Shown here piece after piece: positions 1-62,680 of a stretch of 64,000 nucleotides of DNA (positions are counted from its first letter, which is position 1; every line of letters begins with the position of its first letter). The DNA is from a virus (taxonomy: Duplodnaviria; Caudoviricetes): IMG/VR virus record IMGVR_UViG_3300031857_023573, positions 32,001 to 96,000 of that record. One strand, written 5' to 3'. A program made the position numbers and the translations under genes. Below the pieces are notes generated by a model. The model was not told where the DNA came from. It was given only the letters and a program-made list of their open reading frames with translations, and made no database searches.

Positions 1-552
1 CAATTTATTAAAAAAAGTGATACTTTGGAATCTGATTATAGAGATTTAATAGCAAGTCTAGATGATAGAAAAAAATCACTTGATGAACTAGACGCGGAGT
101 TGACTAAAAAAGTTCAAGATCTTGCTAACGATTTTAAAATGAAGCAGGAATCATTTGATTCATTTAAAAAAGAAGAAACCTTAAAGTTAGAGAAAATTAA
201 ATCTGATTTAGACCAGAAAAAGATAGAGGTAGATTCAAAAGAAAAGTCTGTAAATGAGACCATAGAGTCCGAAATGACGAAGGCTAAAGAGAAATTTCAG
301 AAAGAAGTTGATTTGTTAAATACTCAGAAAAAAGAATTGGCATCTCTTAAAAAACAAATTTCTTTAGAAAAAAAAGAATTAGAATCAGAGACAGAGAAAC
401 TTCAAGAAATGAGAGATCAAATACTTGAAAAGCAGACTGATCTAGAAAAATTAGATAACGAGATCAAACAATGGGAATCACAACATTGGCAGATGCAAAG
501 ATTAAAAGGTTATAACGGAACACCACCGCCACCTCCTTCTGCTATAGTTTAA
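1..552 (+). CDS. Coiled-coil protein, 3' part (frame open from base 1, so the gene probably starts before the window)
   Basis: Frame 1 is open from position 1 (caa ttt att aaa...) through the TTG called at 25; E/K-rich heptads; Pro-rich C-terminus. Confidence 0.75.
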   Translation, partial: QFIKKSDTLESDYRDLIASLDDRKKSLDELDAELTKKVQDLANDFKMKQESFDSFKKEETLKLEKIKSDLDQKKIEVDSKEKSVNETIESEMTKAKEKFQKEVDLLNTQKKELASLKKQISLEKKELESETEKLQEMRDQILEKQTDLEKLDNEIKQWESQHWQMQRLKGYNGTPPPPPSAIV

Positions 553-4093: not shown

Positions 4094-4495
4094 ATGTCTT
4101 TTAAAATAAAAAATTCACAAATTAATAATGAGGCTTTAGAATGTTTGAATTCAATAATCGATGAGGATATCAATGCCGGTGCTGCTTTTAAACTAACAAG
4201 AATTCTAAAATTTATTTCAACTATAGTTGAGGATCGAGTAAAGGCAGAAGAGAAAATACTTGATAAGTGGGTCCAAAAGGATGAAAATGGTCAGATAAAA
4301 AAAGCAACGGGTGAAAATGGTGAAGATTTGCCAGATACAGTTTATATAAAAGATGTAGATGCATTTAGTAAGGATATGTCTGATCTATTGAATGCCGAAA
4401 ATGTAATTCCATTTGAAAAGTTAGAGTTTTCAGAACTAGGACTCAAGACTGCTAAAATTAAAGATCTTCTAAAGATCGAATTTCTTTTCAATTAA
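4094..4495 (+). CDS. DUF1617-like phage protein (often next to tail-fibre genes)
   Basis: AFKLTRILK...KILDKW..KDENG pattern; lies directly before two structural genes. Confidence 0.45.
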   Translation: MSFKIKNSQINNEALECLNSIIDEDINAGAAFKLTRILKFISTIVEDRVKAEEKILDKWVQKDENGQIKKATGENGEDLPDTVYIKDVDAFSKDMSDLLNAENVIPFEKLEFSELGLKTAKIKDLLKIEFLFN

Positions 4496-51853: not shown

Positions 51854-53725
51854 TCAAAAGTTTGGATTTTCTGACCGATATTTATCATATCTGTTAGTCA
51901 ATTCAATCAAAAACTTATTTCTTACAATATCTTCATTTTTGAATTCGAACATGAAGAGATCTTCCATTCCATCTGTCATTTTGATAAAATCAACATACCC
52001 AGAATCTCTCCTTTTTACATCATACTGTGATGTATCTCCCATCATAACTGCTTTTGAGTCTTTACCAAGACGTGTGGACCAAAGCATAAGTTGCTTGATA
52101 GATGCGTTTTGACATTCGTCGAGTAACATAATACAGTTATCATAGGTTGAACCTCTCATGTACGCAAGTGGTTCAAAAGTAATTTCTTCTATTGAAAAAA
52201 GCCAATCTATAGTTCCTCTATCTAAAATTTTACAGAAATTGGTATAATATGACTGCTTGTATGGATCAATCTTTTCATCTACTGTTCCCGGCAGAAGTCC
52301 AAGTTGCTCACCACTTTCTTGAATTGGTTTTGTTATTATGATTTTATCAATTTTTCTATCTGCAAGTAGTGAGAGTGCTGTGTAACACGTTGTAAAAGTG
52401 TTGTGAGTCACAATGTAATCATTTGTAAGATAAAGATGACTAGAGTGTTCGACTTTAATACACTTTGCTTCTTTTTTTCCGATGAATTTAGCACCAATGA
52501 TATATCTTGTAGGTCTGTATTTAGTTTTAGAAACTACTTTTTCAGATTTTCTTTTAAGTAGAAATGGATTAATATCTGGATTCATAGTTACAGTAATTGA
52601 GTATGAATTTTTTCCCATAATTTTTTCACCATCTTTATAATAGTATCCTTGAGTAGACTTTCTTTCAGTTGCAATTCCACCTAAAGATTGAACAAGTTCT
52701 TTGACATCATTAACTAATCTTTTTGATGTTGATGAAAAACTAACATATGTCCCATCATTAGAAACTGTGCCATCTGTGTCCATAATTCCTCTAAGTAGAG
52801 AAATTCTATTTTCCACAGTATTAAATTTATAAACATCTGGAATAAATTTATCACTAGACAAATTTCCCCATAGTTCAATTTTTTTAAGATATTGTTTTAT
52901 TTTGTTTGTACGAGAATCTTCTTTTTTGATAAGTGCATAGTCGTACTTTGTTCTTTTTGATACTTTAATATCACTATCTAAAAGACTCGTAATTGTATCA
53001 ATAATTTCACTATCTGCAGTTGTGAACCCAACGTGGTGTCTTAGGCAACCATCACCAATTAGACAACCCATAATATATGGGTGTATTTCTAATTCCTGTT
53101 CTATGAACTCAACTGGGTTCGTAATTGGTATTGTGTGGTTTATTCTACCTCTTTTTGTATAGAGTGTTTCTATTATTTCACTTGTTGTTTTTACAGTCCC
53201 TGGCTTTTGTTCTCTGTATCTAGTTCTTTGGCCATTTACTGTTTTTGTCCACTTTCTATTATTTCTATCATTTTCAGACTGTGTAACCCAAAGATGGTCG
53301 AGACAACATTCTACTGTCGTATTATCCGAAAACTTGAGTTCCCAAATATCTTTTTTACCTTGTGGAAAAACTCCAACAATATTGGTCTCTTTACCATCAA
53401 TTGATACTACTTTATCACCGATTTCAAGCTGACCCATAGTAGTCCATCCGGTCGGTGTTAAGACTGGTGAATCGAGAGGTTGTGCCTTACTAGTTCCAGC
53501 AGGGCCGTGAACCACAGTAAGGGTATTGTTTCTAATACCTTTATAAAGATCAGTTTGCTTGTCAGATAATCTTACACCAGTTGAATTTTGGAAAGACTCT
53601 TTGGTTAGAGAAGCTCTTTTTCTTTGAAGTTTATCAACTTCATATTCTCTTAAGCTTTCATCAATCTCTCTTTGAACTTGAGTTCGTTGACTTTGCTTTG
53701 TTTTAGAACGTTGTTGTCGAGCCAT
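51854..53725 (-). CDS. phoH: PhoH-like ATPase interrupted by an intein
   Basis: HGPAGTSK|intein|TF; KIIITKP; LGLLPG...EK..PY; PLAYMRGST; LDECQNA; GDTSQYD; IVRN. Spliced product 261 aa. Confidence 0.92.
   Translation of the reverse strand: MARQQRSKTKQSQRTQVQREIDESLREYEVDKLQRKRASLTKESFQNSTGVRLSDKQTDLYKGIRNNTLTVVHGPAGTSKAQPLDSPVLTPTGWTTMGQLEIGDKVVSIDGKETNIVGVFPQGKKDIWELKFSDNTTVECCLDHLWVTQSENDRNNRKWTKTVNGQRTRYREQKPGTVKTTSEIIETLYTKRGRINHTIPITNPVEFIEQELEIHPYIMGCLIGDGCLRHHVGFTTADSEIIDTITSLLDSDIKVSKRTKYDYALIKKEDSRTNKIKQYLKKIELWGNLSSDKFIPDVYKFNTVENRISLLRGIMDTDGTVSNDGTYVSFSSTSKRLVNDVKELVQSLGGIATERKSTQGYYYKDGEKIMGKNSYSITVTMNPDINPFLLKRKSEKVVSKTKYRPTRYIIGAKFIGKKEAKCIKVEHSSHLYLTNDYIVTHNTFTTCYTALSLLADRKIDKIIITKPIQESGEQLGLLPGTVDEKIDPYKQSYYTNFCKILDRGTIDWLFSIEEITFEPLAYMRGSTYDNCIMLLDECQNASIKQLMLWSTRLGKDSKAVMMGDTSQYDVKRRDSGYVDFIKMTDGMEDLFMFEFKNEDIVRNKFLIELTNRYDKYRSENPNF
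52400..53485 (-). mobile_element. Class-3 intein (362 aa) with LAGLIDADG homing endonuclease
   Basis: Starts at Ala (AQPLDSPVLTPTGW), ends THN before Thr+1; WCT triad (DHLW, AKCIKV, VTHN); LAGLIDADG motifs YIMGCLIGDG and LLRGIMDTDG. Confidence 0.9.
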
Positions 53726-54760: not shown

Positions 54761-54985
54761 ATGAACTTTTTATTTGAGTTTAAAAATTATTATAATCCTG
54801 GTGATATCGTACTTATCGAATATTGGTACAACGGTATGATAACACCTGTAAAAATTTTAGAAAAAGTTTCTAAAAAGTCTTATTTAATCTCTCACAACAT
54901 TCCCCAGTCTAAAATACATTTGGCACCTGATGAAATTATTAAATCATCAGATATTATTGACACTTTTAATAAACAAGTGAATTAA
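54761..54985 (+). CDS. 74-aa SH3/KOW-like protein (MNFLFEFKNY...)
   Basis: ATG at 54761 is in frame with track ORF 54551-54985 and lies 5 nt after AATATATA (54748-54755); PGDIVLIEY. Confidence 0.7.
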   Translation: MNFLFEFKNYYNPGDIVLIEYWYNGMITPVKILEKVSKKSYLISHNIPQSKIHLAPDEIIKSSDIIDTFNKQVN

Positions 54986-56120
54986 CCATTACCTCGTAAG
55001 AGATTCTATCATCTGGATTATTCATGTCTAAATACTGATTTTTAATTACTTCAATTTCTTCTTTTGAAAGTGAAGTATTCAAAAACTTGTCTTTCACACT
55101 TTCGTATTTATAGTCAACATCAGTTGTAGTTTTAAAACTAGTTACTTCCATTTCTTTTAACTGGCCTTTTCCAGAGTCATAGTAAGTTCTTGCCTTTCTT
55201 TGCTTTGACATTCCTGAATTATGATAATAATCTTCATCATCATAGTATTGTCCGTAGTCATAATTATGATAGTTCTTATTTGACCAAGATTTAGGCTTTC
55301 TTGAGAATCCTCTTGAATTCCAAGATGTAGCGGTTCTTGAGTCATAAGAATCCCAGTCATATAGGGATTCTTTTTTATTTTTATCTCTTTTTGTTGGTAG
55401 ATTTTCCCAGTCAACATTCAAACAAGCAACTGCTAGCTTGTGTAGATGTAAAATATCTTGACTTTCATTGAAAGTATGTTCTGAGTTATATCCAACTGAG
55501 ATATTAGTACATTCTGAAATTTGAGATACGAATTCAGCTGAGTCTGTATAAACACCAGTTGAATCTGTTTTGTAGGAAAGACCACCTTTATTTAGTTCTT
55601 TTGCTAGAGCTTTTGCAAATTCATCTGAACAGCTTCTAGTTGAAGATTGGTGTGTAATAACTGAATTATTTCCTCTTCGGTCGAATGAAATAATACGGTC
55701 CCAGTTTTGTTCTATTGTTTTAGATCGAAGTGATGATCCGATACAACCAACTTCTTCACCAAAGAAGAAGTAGTAGAGTCCAGGTATTTGGTGTTTCATC
55801 ATCCAAAGCATGATTGTGACACCTGCTTTATCATCAGCTCCTAAGATTGATTTTCCGTCAGTTTTGATGATATTTCCTTGAAATTGATGTTTTACTTCAA
55901 CTTGGTCTTTACAAGCGGTATCAAGGTGGCTTGCAAAAATTGTTCTGCTTTCACCTATTTTGAAAAAATAATTGCCGTGAATATCTTTTTCTAAGTTTTT
56001 TGGGAAAACTCCTGCTTCGGTCATTTCCTCTACTAACTCGTCTTCATACCCATATGGATAGGTCTTTGACGTTAGTTTAATAAATGTGTTTTTAATAAAA
56101 TTGAAAGATTCTTTACTCAT
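54966..56120 (-). CDS. M20/M28-like zinc metallopeptidase
   Basis: FASHLD, LGADDKAG, FGEEVGCIGS, ISFDRRG, TDSAEF, NISVGY..EH ligand set; Y/D-rich tail. Confidence 0.75.
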   Translation of the reverse strand: MSKESFNFIKNTFIKLTSKTYPYGYEDELVEEMTEAGVFPKNLEKDIHGNYFFKIGESRTIFASHLDTACKDQVEVKHQFQGNIIKTDGKSILGADDKAGVTIMLWMMKHQIPGLYYFFFGEEVGCIGSSLRSKTIEQNWDRIISFDRRGNNSVITHQSSTRSCSDEFAKALAKELNKGGLSYKTDSTGVYTDSAEFVSQISECTNISVGYNSEHTFNESQDILHLHKLAVACLNVDWENLPTKRDKNKKESLYDWDSYDSRTATSWNSRGFSRKPKSWSNKNYHNYDYGQYYDDEDYYHNSGMSKQRKARTYYDSGKGQLKEMEVTSFKTTTDVDYKYESVKDKFLNTSLSKEEIEVIKNQYLDMNNPDDRISYEVMVNSLVY

Positions 56121-56311
56121 TAGAGCTAATATAAGATAAATATATCAAAAATCCAAATTTGTTGAAGTCTTTTTTGGTAAAGGTTTCTGAAAAATAGTGT
56201 CAAAATTACTCATAAAAAATCCGAATACCGAATTTAAACAAAAATATTTTTTGATATATAACAACATGATTCTTGGAACATGATTTCAAGAACCAAAAAA
56301 TAAATATCAAT

Positions 56312-56979: not shown

Positions 56980-57011
56980 AAAGAGGCTTCGAAAGAGGCC
57001 TCTTTTTTTTT
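56980..57011 (+). terminator. Intrinsic terminator with GAAA tetraloop
   Basis: AAAGAGGCTTC-GAAA-GAGGCCTCTTT followed by a T-run. Confidence 0.9.
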
Positions 57012-57042
57012 AAACTAACCCTTGAATTCCTACTATATAACT

Positions 57043-57118
57043 TAGCTGTTCGTCAATCTTATGTCGAGTGTTCAGTGTGACACTTTTAAGAGTTTGAAAA
57101 GACTCAAAGATATAGGAT
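57043..57118 (+). ncRNA. Structured 5' leader RNA (three-way junction plus long-range helix)
   Basis: P2 ATCTTATGTC(57056-65)/GATATAGGAT(57109-18); P3 GAGTGT/ACACTT; P4 GAGTTT-GAAA-AGACTC; P1 TAGCTGTTCGT pairs with ACGAACAGCTA at 58077-58087. Confidence 0.6.
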
Positions 57119-57138
57119 AAAAAATAAAAAGAATAACT

Positions 57139-58068
57139 ATGAAAGTTAAACAAACAAAAGGCACTAATTTGCCAAGTGCTTGGATCGTAAGTCCAAAAGA
57201 TAAAGGCAGAAAATCAATCAAGGGAGATAAAATCTATCTCGATGATAATCAAGAATTTGAAATCGAAATCTTCAACCCCTTAAAAGAATCAGTACTAGCT
57301 GATATTCGTTTAAACGGTAGTTCAATTGCTAAAACCGGTCTAGTTATCAAACCAGGCCAAAGAGTCTACTTAGATTGTTTTGTTGATGATAGAAAGAAAT
57401 TTATATTTCAAACCTATCAAATCGATGGAAGTCAAGAATCAATTGATGCAACCTCTGATAACGGTCTACTTGAAGTATTTTTCTACAAAGAACAAGCAGT
57501 CACACTTCAAAACTGGGCTGATAGATTTCATAAAGTTGTAATTCATGAATACTATCCAGTGTATCCTGTATACACAAGATGGTATCCTTACTCCGGAACT
57601 ATTTTGACTGGTGGTATAACTACTGACACAATTACTTCTGGAACAACTTTAACCAACACAAACGGTTCAAATGCTATTTTTAGTACAAATAGTGGAAATT
57701 TTACTGTTGGTAACAGTTATAATTCTGGAACTCTTACTTCTTGCAATACTGCTTATTACAATTCACCAGTAGCTGATCCTCTTGAAACCGGTAGAGTTGA
57801 AAAAGGTGAGAAATCTAATCAGCAATTTGTTGATGTTGATATGGAGTTTGAAAAGAACCACATACACCATCTTGTATATCAACTTCTACCAAGCTCAAGG
57901 AAACCAAAAGAAGTTAAAGATTTTTCAAAAAATTATGATAAAAAAACAAACAGAAATTCAGATGACACAATTGAGTTAATTAAAAAGCTCTCTGATTTAC
58001 ACTCAGCTGGCATCTTAACAGATGAAGAGTTTTCTAATAAAAAGTCTGAACTACTCAGTAAAATTTAA
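57139..58068 (+). CDS. Phage hypothetical protein with C-terminal SHOCT domain
   Basis: N-terminal beta-domain (EFEIEIFNP...NGLLEVFFYKE), T/S/N-rich linker, IKKLSDLHSAGILTDEEFSNKKSELL (SHOCT). Confidence 0.75.
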   Translation: MKVKQTKGTNLPSAWIVSPKDKGRKSIKGDKIYLDDNQEFEIEIFNPLKESVLADIRLNGSSIAKTGLVIKPGQRVYLDCFVDDRKKFIFQTYQIDGSQESIDATSDNGLLEVFFYKEQAVTLQNWADRFHKVVIHEYYPVYPVYTRWYPYSGTILTGGITTDTITSGTTLTNTNGSNAIFSTNSGNFTVGNSYNSGTLTSCNTAYYNSPVADPLETGRVEKGEKSNQQFVDVDMEFEKNHIHHLVYQLLPSSRKPKEVKDFSKNYDKKTNRNSDDTIELIKKLSDLHSAGILTDEEFSNKKSELLSKI

Positions 58069-58094
58069 AGAACCAAACGAACAGCTATAAATCT

Positions 58095-58124
58095 AAAAAG
58101 AGAGTCATTTGACTCTCTTTTTTT
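58095..58124 (+). terminator. Intrinsic terminator (bidirectional shape)
   Basis: AAAAAGAGAGTCA-TT-TGACTCTCTTTTT. Confidence 0.9.
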
Positions 58125-58136
58125 ATATATACTCTT

Positions 58137-59510
58137 ATGAGACTTAAAAAGTATCTAGAATTTATCAAAGAATCTGTAAAAAACGATTCAATGTACTGGA
58201 TTAGTGAAGATGAAATTAAAGATATTTTCAAATTCATTACTGATGAAGGTTATCCACTCAGTATCACAAAAGTGCTTTTTGGCCATTCTGGATATTCTGA
58301 GCACGGTAACAATCACATTAGAAATTCAAAAGAATTAGTCTTGTTTGATATAAACCAAGATGATGTTGTACTAAGAGGTGAAGAGTATATGCCTGGATAT
58401 AGAATATCAATCATTATAAGTCAGTCTAAAGGTGACAATGTAACAGATGAATTTCGAAGTGCTATTTCTCAATTAAAAGGCGAAGGGTATGTAGTTGATA
58501 CAGTTGAAGATGAAGATGGTAAGACTAATTTGGAAAATATACACCTTTTAGATGGTTCTATTGTGACTTGGATACCAGAAACTCCTAACAAACCATTTAC
58601 TACCGATCCAGATGAGATGTCAGATGGTGATGTTTATATCAGTTCTTCTGAACTTGTCATTTTAGTTCATCAACCAGAAGAGGTTAAATTTACCGAGAAA
58701 ATGTTGGCTGAAATCTATGACTGGAAATGTGATAGAATAGAAGGCGACAAAATCTACTGTCATGTTGATATAGAAGATATGGCAAGATCTGTTCTTTCAA
58801 GAAGAGATTATGAAAGATGGGGTAAAATGCTAGAAGAAGGAATCGATATTGACAACTACTATGGAGAAGGCTACTATCCAGACATAAGTAGTGTTTTTCA
58901 ATATACACTAAACAAAGAAGCAACTACTCTATTAGTAAAAGTAATTATTAAAGAGTTAGGCGGCCTTGAATCAGCTCTCACTGAACTTGAAGGTGAAGAG
59001 ATCTATGAAAGTCTTTCTGGAAAGTCCGAAGACGAGGTTATTGATATTCTTTTAAAAGAAAGATTTAAAAGAAGTTTAGAAAAACTATCACAAGATTCTG
59101 AAATAATGTCAACAGTTAGAGAAACTATTGCAGATTGGGAAAGACAAGCACATTGTGACGCAAATTGGGATGAATTGATATCTGAATTTGATGAAATTGT
59201 ATCAGATGTCACTGAATATACTAAACTTGAAAAAGAAGTTGATAAGTACTACATGAAGAAAGACACTCGTGAAAAAGTTTGGTATAAATCAGTAGTGACT
59301 CATTATGAGATACCATTTCAAGATAAATGGATTGAAGAGTATGGAAAGTCACTTAGAGGATATTCACTTGATGCACTATTTCAAGAATGGTGTTCTGATG
59401 AATATTTAGATTACAAATTGGAACCAAGATTTAATGACTGGGGTGACGTTGATTCTGATGCCCTAAATAAAGAGATTATATCAATATTAAACTACAATTT
59501 AAAGTCCTAA
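58137..59510 (+). CDS. Acidic hypothetical protein with leader MRLKKYLEFIKES
   Basis: 457 aa; TTATATATA 5 nt upstream of ATG. Confidence 0.75.
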   Translation: MRLKKYLEFIKESVKNDSMYWISEDEIKDIFKFITDEGYPLSITKVLFGHSGYSEHGNNHIRNSKELVLFDINQDDVVLRGEEYMPGYRISIIISQSKGDNVTDEFRSAISQLKGEGYVVDTVEDEDGKTNLENIHLLDGSIVTWIPETPNKPFTTDPDEMSDGDVYISSSELVILVHQPEEVKFTEKMLAEIYDWKCDRIEGDKIYCHVDIEDMARSVLSRRDYERWGKMLEEGIDIDNYYGEGYYPDISSVFQYTLNKEATTLLVKVIIKELGGLESALTELEGEEIYESLSGKSEDEVIDILLKERFKRSLEKLSQDSEIMSTVRETIADWERQAHCDANWDELISEFDEIVSDVTEYTKLEKEVDKYYMKKDTREKVWYKSVVTHYEIPFQDKWIEEYGKSLRGYSLDALFQEWCSDEYLDYKLEPRFNDWGDVDSDALNKEIISILNYNLKS

Positions 59511-59687: not shown

Positions 59688-59720
59688 GTCTCAAATATAC
59701 AAAATTTTTATATATAAATC

Positions 59721-60224
59721 ATGTTAAATTTTAACGATTTTATAGAAGAATCTTATCTTGAATCAAATTTTGCACCAATATATCATTTTACAAATAATTA
59801 CTACCTTCTTACAATTTTAAGAGAAAATGTTTTAAAAGTTGGTTGGTTTGATAATCCTTTCTTTGGTAAGAATGTTAAAATTGTTTCATTTACTCGAAAT
59901 AATAAACTGAATGTAGGTAATTATAAAACTGATTTAAATGTGATACTATGTGTTGATAAAAATAAAATGTTATTAGATGGGTATAAATTATATCCATATG
60001 ATTACTTCATTCAAAGTGGCAAAGAGATCCATACAAAATCTAATATTTTAAGATCTAAACCTTTTGAATTTGAAGAGGCTTCAAATGTTGATATTATCAA
60101 CATAGATAAGTATATTATATATGTTGATTTTCTAGAAGACTCTCTATTTGACTCATCAACATCTATCAACATTTTAAAGAAAAAAAATATACCAATTTAT
60201 GAAGCCGGTAGAAGATTATTTTGA
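59721..60224 (+). CDS. Putative ADP-ribosyltransferase-fold protein with leader MLNFNDFIEES
   Basis: IYHFT ... VSFTRN ... FEFEE spaced like the H/R - S-x-T - ExE signature of ART folds; TATATA motif 4 nt upstream. Confidence 0.45.
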   Translation: MLNFNDFIEESYLESNFAPIYHFTNNYYLLTILRENVLKVGWFDNPFFGKNVKIVSFTRNNKLNVGNYKTDLNVILCVDKNKMLLDGYKLYPYDYFIQSGKEIHTKSNILRSKPFEFEEASNVDIINIDKYIIYVDFLEDSLFDSSTSINILKKKNIPIYEAGRRLF

Positions 60225-61606: not shown

Positions 61607-62680
61607 ATGATGTCCTGTAAAATAACATATATTTATGGTCTATTTGAAATTGGTACTGAAGAGGAGATACGATATGTTGGTAAAACTGACAATCCATCTA
61701 AAAGACTTAGAGACCACAGAAATGATAAGAATTCAACAAGTCACAAATCTTGTTGGATCAAAAGTGTTTTCAATAAAGGAGGTGATATTGGATTAAAAGT
61801 TTTTAAAGTAGTCAACCATGATAATTGGAAGGATGAAGAAATTAAATTTATAAAAGAAATGTCGACTAAATTCAAACTTGTAAATTTGACCGATGGTGGT
61901 GACGGTCGCATGGATAATATTTATAACAGAACCTTTGCTGAGTGTAAACTGTGGTTAGAATCTAATAAACCCGAGTGGATAGTAGGAATGAAAGAATACA
62001 AAAAATGGTCAAAAATGAATGATTTTCCAGACTTTTTACCGAAGGCACCGAATCGTGTTTTTACTGACTGGACCACTTGGGGCGATTATTTGGGAACAGG
62101 AAGTATTCATACGATGAAGAGAAAAGATATTTATCTAAGTTATGAGGAAGCGAAAAAATACTTGAAAGAAAACTTCGATTTAAAAAGTTCAGTTGACTTT
62201 AAAAAAGAAAAAATTCCAGTATTTATTCCCAAAAAGCCCTATAATGTTTATACTTGTTGGAAAGGATGGCATGAATTTTTAGATTATGTTCCCTTTAAAA
62301 GAATAAATGCTGAATATCTTGACTATGATTCTGCCAAGTTATGGATAAGTGAAAATTTTGGTCCTATAACATCAAAAAATTATAGAGAAAAATCCAAAAA
62401 TAATGAGATATCAATTTTTTTACCGAGAAAACCGGAGAGAGTCTATGAAAATTTCAAATGGGGTGAATTTCTATCTACTAACGGCAGGAAAAAGAATAAA
62501 AGTTTCTATTTGAGTTACAATGAATCTGTGAGTATTGTTCATACTTTGAATATAAAAACCAATGCAGAATGGCGAAAATGGTGTAAAAACAAACCAAAAG
62601 AATTTGTTAGAATACCATCTTCGCCAAGTACTGTTTATAAAGGAGAGTGGAAAAACTGGTTCGAATGGTTAGGAAATTGA
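61607..62680 (+). CDS. GIY-YIG endonuclease with tandem phage-integrase-repeat-like units (homing endonuclease-like)
   Basis: TYIYGL...RYVGKTDNPSKRLRDH; 4-5 repeats of (S/T)(Y/F).EAK......P..P..VY..W..W..(F/Y)LG. Confidence 0.75.
   Translation: MMSCKITYIYGLFEIGTEEEIRYVGKTDNPSKRLRDHRNDKNSTSHKSCWIKSVFNKGGDIGLKVFKVVNHDNWKDEEIKFIKEMSTKFKLVNLTDGGDGRMDNIYNRTFAECKLWLESNKPEWIVGMKEYKKWSKMNDFPDFLPKAPNRVFTDWTTWGDYLGTGSIHTMKRKDIYLSYEEAKKYLKENFDLKSSVDFKKEKIPVFIPKKPYNVYTCWKGWHEFLDYVPFKRINAEYLDYDSAKLWISENFGPITSKNYREKSKNNEISIFLPRKPERVYENFKWGEFLSTNGRKKNKSFYLSYNESVSIVHTLNIKTNAEWRKWCKNKPKEFVRIPSSPSTVYKGEWKNWFEWLGN

Follow-up and report, generated by a model that had tools for sequence, protein, structure and literature searches.

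To our knowledge, long-range pairing between the 5' and 3' ends of bacterial mRNAs has been documented experimentally in a handful of cases (hok, icaR, hbs, and RNAIII), mostly with little or no evolutionary support. The B. subtilis hbs mRNA has a helix of ~14 bp between its 5' and 3' UTRs whose effect is to modulate, and limit, cleavage in the leader by RNase Y (PMC5737220; Braun, Durand and Condon 2017). Helices of this kind can protect bacterial mRNAs (PMC5737220; review PMC7821165), and the 3' UTR of hbs is not conserved among close relatives (review PMC7821165). In hok, the tac/fbi fold-back helix closes and stabilizes the complete mRNA and sequesters the Shine-Dalgarno sequence of mok; opening begins with 3' processing, which is followed by defined alternative pairings and antisense control (PMC9841398). 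In S. aureus, pairing of the icaR 3' UTR with the ribosome-binding site generates a site for RNase III (PMC3868564), and the end helix of RNAIII is a further intramolecular 5'-3' pairing (review PMC7821165).

The window analyzed here is a stretch of 64,000 nucleotides of phage DNA (positions 32,001 to 96,000 of IMG/VR record IMGVR_UViG_3300031857_023573). It contains a gene for a 309-aa SHOCT-domain protein whose mRNA had been proposed, from the letters of the window, to be clamped end to end by an 11-bp helix (P1) next to a three-way-junction leader. By blastn, two genomes of uncultured phages, 634 and 642 kb in length, contain the cassette at 72% and 69% identity. Sequence comparison places the window in a huge phage and indicates that the architecture is conserved in a clade of freshwater phages with genomes of ~0.5–0.64 Mb. 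Each element of the original prediction was recovered. The TACTATATA motif and the two arms, complementary at 11 of 11 positions, lie at the coordinates given in Table 1, and a terminator scan confirmed that the 3' arm falls between the stop codon and the terminator stem. The ORF has a Pfam match to the SHOCT domain (residues 281–306, E 1.3e-6), and the leader helix P2 and two hairpins, one of them GAAA-looped, are present where they had been placed. Because there are terminators on both flanks, the SHOCT-gene transcription unit is isolated. On the sequence evidence, this unit combines a previously undescribed leader motif with a covariation-supported 5'-3' mRNA clamp, a kind of structure that is known but rarely documented.

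Table 1. Positions of features in and around the SHOCT-gene transcription unit, numbered from the first letter of the window
Feature	Positions	Strand	Basis or remark
Terminator of the upstream gene	56980–57005		Closes the preceding unit
Promoter: upstream element AAACTAA (57012–57018), 14–15 nt spacer, (C)TATATA (57033/34–57039)	57012–57039	+	Consensus from homologous upstream regions
TACTATATA motif	57031–57039	+
P1 5' arm, TAGCTGTTCGT	57043–57053	+	Exact 11-bp complement of 58077–58087; covariation
P1 covarying core, AGCTGTTCG	57044–57052	+	Putative transcription start at ~57044
Three-way-junction leader	57056–57118	+	RNAalifold and pair counts; covariance model, 105 bits
P2	57056/57–57065 with 57109–57117/18	+	Leader helix
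Hairpin 1	57066–57085	+	Leader helix
Hairpin 2, GAAA loop	57090–57105	+	Leader helix
A-rich translation-initiation spacer, unpaired, without Shine-Dalgarno sequence	57119–57138	+	Folds; A-rich in alignment A2
ORF, 309 aa (beta-sandwich, S/T/N/G-rich linker, SHOCT helices)	57139–58068	+	Pfam, AlphaFold
Stop codon of the 309-aa ORF	58066–58068	+
P1 3' arm, ACGAACAGCTA	58077–58087	+	8 nt past the stop codon, 7 nt before the terminator stem
Intrinsic terminator (stem 58095–58122)	58095–58124	+	Terminator scan; stems covary among loci
TATATA of the next gene (ATG at 58137)	58124–58131		Entered by the T-run of the SHOCT gene's terminator

Among the experimentally studied cases, the hbs mRNA is the closest relative of the phage clamp. 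[quoted passage not shown] They differ in that the 5' arm of P1 coincides with the inferred 5' terminus, adjoins a three-way junction, and belongs to a phage gene. The support also differs, being experimental for hbs and evolutionary, from the sequences of >100 loci, for the phage message. Whereas the 3' UTR of hbs is not conserved (PMC7821165), P1 is conserved between loci whose proteins are just 41%–50% identical. With icaR and RNAIII, the likeness lies in intramolecular 5'-3' pairing in a bacterial RNA, with regulatory consequences. Unlike the icaR 3'-UTR motif, the phage 3' arm does not pair with the ribosome-binding site; its partner is the extreme 5' end (nt 1–11), ~95 nt upstream of the ATG.

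The window was used to ask how often unrelated flanks match as well as the two arms do. The flanks of 58 genes gave 3306 non-cognate 5'/3' pairs, and 1.8% of these equal or exceed the score of the P1 11-mer. About one such match is therefore expected per window, and the 11-mer alone is not significant; the significance of the pairing comes from the comparative loci only and not from the window. The comparative set includes >110 homologous loci from huge freshwater phages, and protein-guided scans supplied 28 loci from IMG/VR and 80 from metagenomes (mostly lake water, contigs ≤492 kb). P1 was found in 91 of the 100 loci that could be scored, meaning that both flanks are present. Its length ranges from 9 to 18 bp, with a core of AGCUGUUCG paired with CGAACAGCU. 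A linker of 2–5 nt joins the 5' arm to P2. At the other end, the 3' arm lies 5–14 nt past the stop codon (mode 8–10) and 0–11 nt before the terminator stem in 71 distinct loci, 26 of which have a distance to the stem of 0–3 nt.

The P1 arms covary. Their covariation score is 0.293 for 41 distinct arm pairs, compared to 0.107 ± 0.012 for column shuffles, and none of 500 shuffles reached the observed value. In register, 86.5% of P1 cells are paired, compared to 28%–46% when the partner is slid by 1–3 nt. When mapped on the protein tree, the 9-bp core has 13 independent Watson-Crick-to-Watson-Crick switches, and 36 are found over 13 columns. The varying pairs are A-U/U-A, G-C/A-U, C-G/A-U, C-G/A-U/G-C, and G-C/U-A/A-U/C-G, and the four central pairs (UGUU/AACA) are invariant across loci. 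The original prediction had named covariation in the flanks of homologs as its check, and these counts bear it out. Positions -5 and -4, which precede the inferred start, have additional A/T pairs that are probably compositional.

Pairs other than Watson-Crick indicate the strand and molecule in which P1 forms. Ten changes account for the G·U states, which are present in 29 loci; five origins of one state are spread over 18 loci, and a clade of seven loci is marked by another. A·C states occur in five loci, all as singletons, and other mismatches are also mostly singletons. Since G·U states are kept in clades and A·C states are singletons, pairing in the sense-strand RNA is indicated, a pattern that is unexpected for a DNA repeat. 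This comparison rests on a tree-aware count over the P1 core; a raw count that includes position +6, which lies outside the helix in the main clade, gives 11 G·U and 20 A·C states.

The leader is ~62 nt in length and consists of P2 (9 bp), hairpin 1 (6 bp), and hairpin 2 (6 bp), the last with a loop that is mostly GAAA. To characterize it, 77 distinct leaders were aligned (alignment A2) and analyzed using RNAalifold and counts of pairs. Of the helix cells, 97.4% are paired, and 16 of the 21 pairs have two-sided (compensatory) changes. None of 500 shuffles reached the observed covariation, and slid registers pair just 33%–50%. All 77 leaders have identical junction nucleotides and one identical G·U pair; the invariance of the three-way junction suggests additional protein binding or a fixed tertiary fold. 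A search of the window against Rfam at gathering thresholds matched a tRNA alone, and raising the limit to E values up to 10 gave only chance-level matches in the leader region, far below thresholds, in line with the earlier statement that the leader is not a known riboswitch or ribozyme. Searched with a covariance model built from A2, the window and three related complete genomes each gave a single strong match, and all 17 further model-confirmed leaders from a pattern scan of IMG/VR sit before the same ORF. With one copy per genome, always ahead of the SHOCT ORF, the leader is a single-copy, gene-specific element. It adds an undescribed three-way-junction leader to the RNA elements of huge phages, a set that is, as far as we know, still small.

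An exact 13-nt direct repeat, GAGTTTGAAAAGA, links hairpin 2 (57090–57102) to the ORF (57844–57856); it is absent in locus L001 and was set aside as probably due to chance. The copy in the ORF falls within a conserved DMEFEKN motif.

Twelve divergent full transcripts (~1.0–1.2 kb) were folded using RNAfold. P1 is in the MFE structure of all 12, with a mean pair probability of 0.84–0.99. Together with the covariation of P1 and the leader in >100 loci, these folds support the central claim of the original prediction, that a 5'-3' helix beside the three-way-junction leader closes a single RNA structure around the whole ORF. The A-rich initiation spacer (~20–25 nt) is outside the consensus structure and is unpaired in the MFE structure of 11 of the 12 transcripts.

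Upstream regions were compared to locate the promoter and the 5' end. The consensus of 65 distinct upstream regions is AAACAAA, ~15 nt, and ATATATA. TATATA is present at every homologous locus, and AAACAAA is ~15 nt upstream of it at most. In the window, TATATA occurs upstream of 41 of the 58 ORFs (e.g., at 58124–58139, at 59710–59723, and in the 16300 region), and AAACAAA is also present in a subset, namely the SHOCT gene, a beta-barrel gene at 56273, and an ORF at 4094. A sigma-70 scan gave no promoter match at 57012–57039. Judged from its distribution, TATATA is the general promoter of the phage. For 12 of the 58 ORFs, the ATG is just 2–7 nt after TATATA (mostly 4–5), so these messages would be leaderless and transcription would start ~5 nt after the motif. 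About 20 further ORFs in the window have 12–30 nt between TATATA and the ATG. The SHOCT gene is an outlier at 99 nt; other leaders are ≤53 nt and mostly ≤30 nt, and four other ORFs with a distant TATATA (65 nt; 134–142 nt) probably have chance matches. In 64 of 91 homologous loci, the P1 core begins 4–5 nt after TATATA, the same distance as the leaderless ATGs. From this spacing, we infer that transcription starts at the first base of the P1 core, within ~3 nt. These huge lake phages have a TATATA promoter in use and many genes that are apparently leaderless, and their hosts are probably without Shine-Dalgarno initiation.

P1 is missing from nine loci in two or three lineages (L015, L017, L024, L026, L028, L030, L105, L107, and L109), all of which retain the gene and the leader, with leader scores of 59–88 bits. 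These lineages have no 3' arm, and the terminator comes directly after the stop codon, within 3–8 nt. P1 has thus been lost two or three times with leader and gene kept and is dispensable. The P1-less lineages still carry GUUC near the 5' end. Given this and the invariant UGUU/AACA pairs, part of the conservation is not due to pairing, and the 5' arm perhaps also has a promoter or start-site function. In several of the P1-less lineages, the 5' tail has AAGUU, which repeats the end of the 3' strand of P2 and could compete for the P2 5' strand.

Some loci have broken or interrupted units. In L038 and L045, a 5' arm of the type AGAUGUUCGC is joined to the 3' arm and downstream region of another type, with two mismatches in P1, and these loci look like natural recombinants or chimeric metagenome assemblies. 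In two related phages, L126 (3769–4587) and L021 (~1690–2470), a GIY-YIG homing-endonuclease gene separates the leader from the SHOCT-domain ORF. In L126, whose leader and 5' arm are both intact, the endonuclease gene starts exactly at the usual place of the ORF's ATG. L021 has a degenerate leader (31.8 bits), and its 5' arm has lost the match to the 3' arm, which is kept.

The order of elements along the RNA has three consequences: P1 can form only on a finished message, the terminator hairpin then lies beside a buried 5' end, and both ends of the ORF leave the same P1/P2 junction. In the proposed clamp, the transcript would start no more than a base or two from the beginning of the P1 core, and its first 9–14 nt would then pair past the stop codon. 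As in hbs, the clamp would shield the leader and the 5' end against endonucleolytic decay and against decay that depends on the 5' end. We give about an even chance to the reading that a gene-specific end clamp stabilizes the full-length message and supports its expression in the manner of hbs. Among the roles first proposed (stabilization, an RNase III signal, circularization, and translational gating), stabilization appears to fit best, and the clamp probably does not switch translation off. Stabilization alone does not explain a partner 1 kb away, because a local 5' hairpin would be a simpler protection. Through the P1/P2 junction, P1 would also bring the stop codon within ~30 nt of the start codon. 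A closed-loop mRNA, in which terminating ribosomes would be released beside the A-rich initiation site and reused on the same message, is quite unlikely; in such a loop, the stop codon would be 5–14 nt and the start codon ~20–25 nt from the shared junction. If true, it would be an RNA-only analog of eukaryotic cap/poly(A) circularization, in a phage with mostly leaderless or short-leader genes.

Other readings of the locus give P1 a different part. The three-way junction, with or without P1, may be a platform for a protein, from phage or host, through which translation or decay of the message is set, with P1 mainly holding the platform in shape; the product of the gene itself and phage translation factors such as bS1 or IF-3 are candidates. 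Such an operator would be in keeping with the junction nucleotides and G·U pair shared by all 77 leaders, the absence of covariation in the UGUU/AACA pairs of P1, the mostly conserved GAAA loop, the single gene-specific copy, and the retention of the leader where P1 was lost. However, no RNA-binding domain is recognizable in the 309-aa product using Pfam, PHROGs, or Foldseek, and RNA tertiary structure or promoter function could explain the invariant nucleotides equally well. We regard an operator as unlikely. A lock of the hok type, in which the end-paired message is inert until 3' trimming or refolding activates it, would provide timed or conditional expression. The topology is that of the tac/fbi helix, in which the 5' end pairs with the 3' UTR after complete transcription and closes the mRNA (PMC9841398). 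The phage message differs from hok in its open initiation region, where hok has a sequestered ribosome-binding site, and in having no conserved alternative pairing and no small toxic peptide. Its initiation region is unpaired in the closed form (11 of 12 folded transcripts), and its ORF encodes a soluble-looking protein of 309 aa. No conserved alternative partner of the 5' arm was found across loci, the best ones being scattered, non-homologous, and anywhere from -79 to +943 relative to the ATG. Lineages without P1 also have the same leader and gene. Since the initiation stretch is not sequestered and the alternative partners are at unrelated places, a hok-like refolding lock is decidedly unlikely, and the translational gating suggested in the original prediction, by analogy to type I toxin mRNAs, is disfavored.

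The remaining readings concern nuclease processing and DNA. Stacked on P2 or on the terminator stem, P1 could be a site for the RNase III of the host or another dsRNA nuclease, at which the message is trimmed or destroyed. P1 abuts P2 and often the terminator stem, so a quasi-continuous helix of ≥20 bp is possible. The RNase III-type processing of T7 early mRNAs is a parallel. In icaR, RNase III has a substrate that is made by 5'/3' pairing (PMC3868564). By itself, however, P1 (9–14 bp) is short for this enzyme, and the spacing between arm and terminator varies from 0 to 11 nt. A search for RNase III domains in three related genomes gave no match, although a host enzyme may exist, and a processing signal is very unlikely. 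Without any RNA helix, the arms could be an inverted repeat that acts in DNA, as the ends of an invertible segment or mobile cassette or as two operators recognized by a DNA-binding regulator. Recombination sites or paired protein sites would be expected to change in concert too, the 4 bp at the center never vary, and the genes flanking the SHOCT unit differ between phages. However, promoter, 5' arm, ORF, 3' arm, and terminator occur in one orientation in all of the >100 loci, and no recombinase is conserved beside the unit. No strand-switch joints were found in the DNA contigs of two lake metagenome runs, a weak test given that contigs can miss rare forms. The conserved block also extends beyond the repeats, from the promoter element to the terminator, and the 5' arm is at a fixed 2–5 nt from a helix shown by G·U-rich covariation. 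Combined with the persistence of G·U but not A·C states in clades, these observations make a DNA-level repeat extremely improbable.

With >100 natural variants, numerous independently arisen compensatory changes, an inferred 5' end, and P1-less lineages as natural controls, the clamped message is a good system in which to ask whether end-pairing serves stability, full-length quality control, or ribosome reuse. The end clamp was also considered as a general feature of the phage, and this was rejected. No other gene in the window stands out against non-cognate 5'/3' flank pairs (58 genes). A scan of LR745206 (634 kb) for complementarity between promoter-proximal and terminator-proximal sequence identified the SHOCT gene and one further hit, and controls gave as many hits. 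In the further match, the TATATA is inside a coding region.

The 309-aa protein belongs to a family of at least 1434 clusters at 90% identity, none of which is functionally named. AlphaFold predicts a beta-sandwich (residues ~11–120 plus strands at 215–251, with pLDDT >85 for 11–120 and 215–250), a disordered linker rich in S/T/N/G, and C-terminal helices that include the SHOCT domain. Foldseek searches of the PDB and AFDB clusters returned generic beta-sandwich matches alone, with no functional lead, and matches in PHROGs are to families of unknown function only.

Several other genes in the window were annotated. A 623-aa ORF at 51854–53725 (-) matches a PhoH-like ATPase at residues 442–613 and LAGLIDADG/intein-type homing endonucleases at residues 302–382, and from this domain arrangement it looks like an intein-interrupted phoH. 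A free-standing ORF of 357 aa at 61607–62680 (+) has an N-terminal GIY-YIG nuclease domain and is probably another homing endonuclease. The 384-aa ORF at 54966–56120 (-) matches phrog_4191, which is annotated as a peptidase (E 7e-72).
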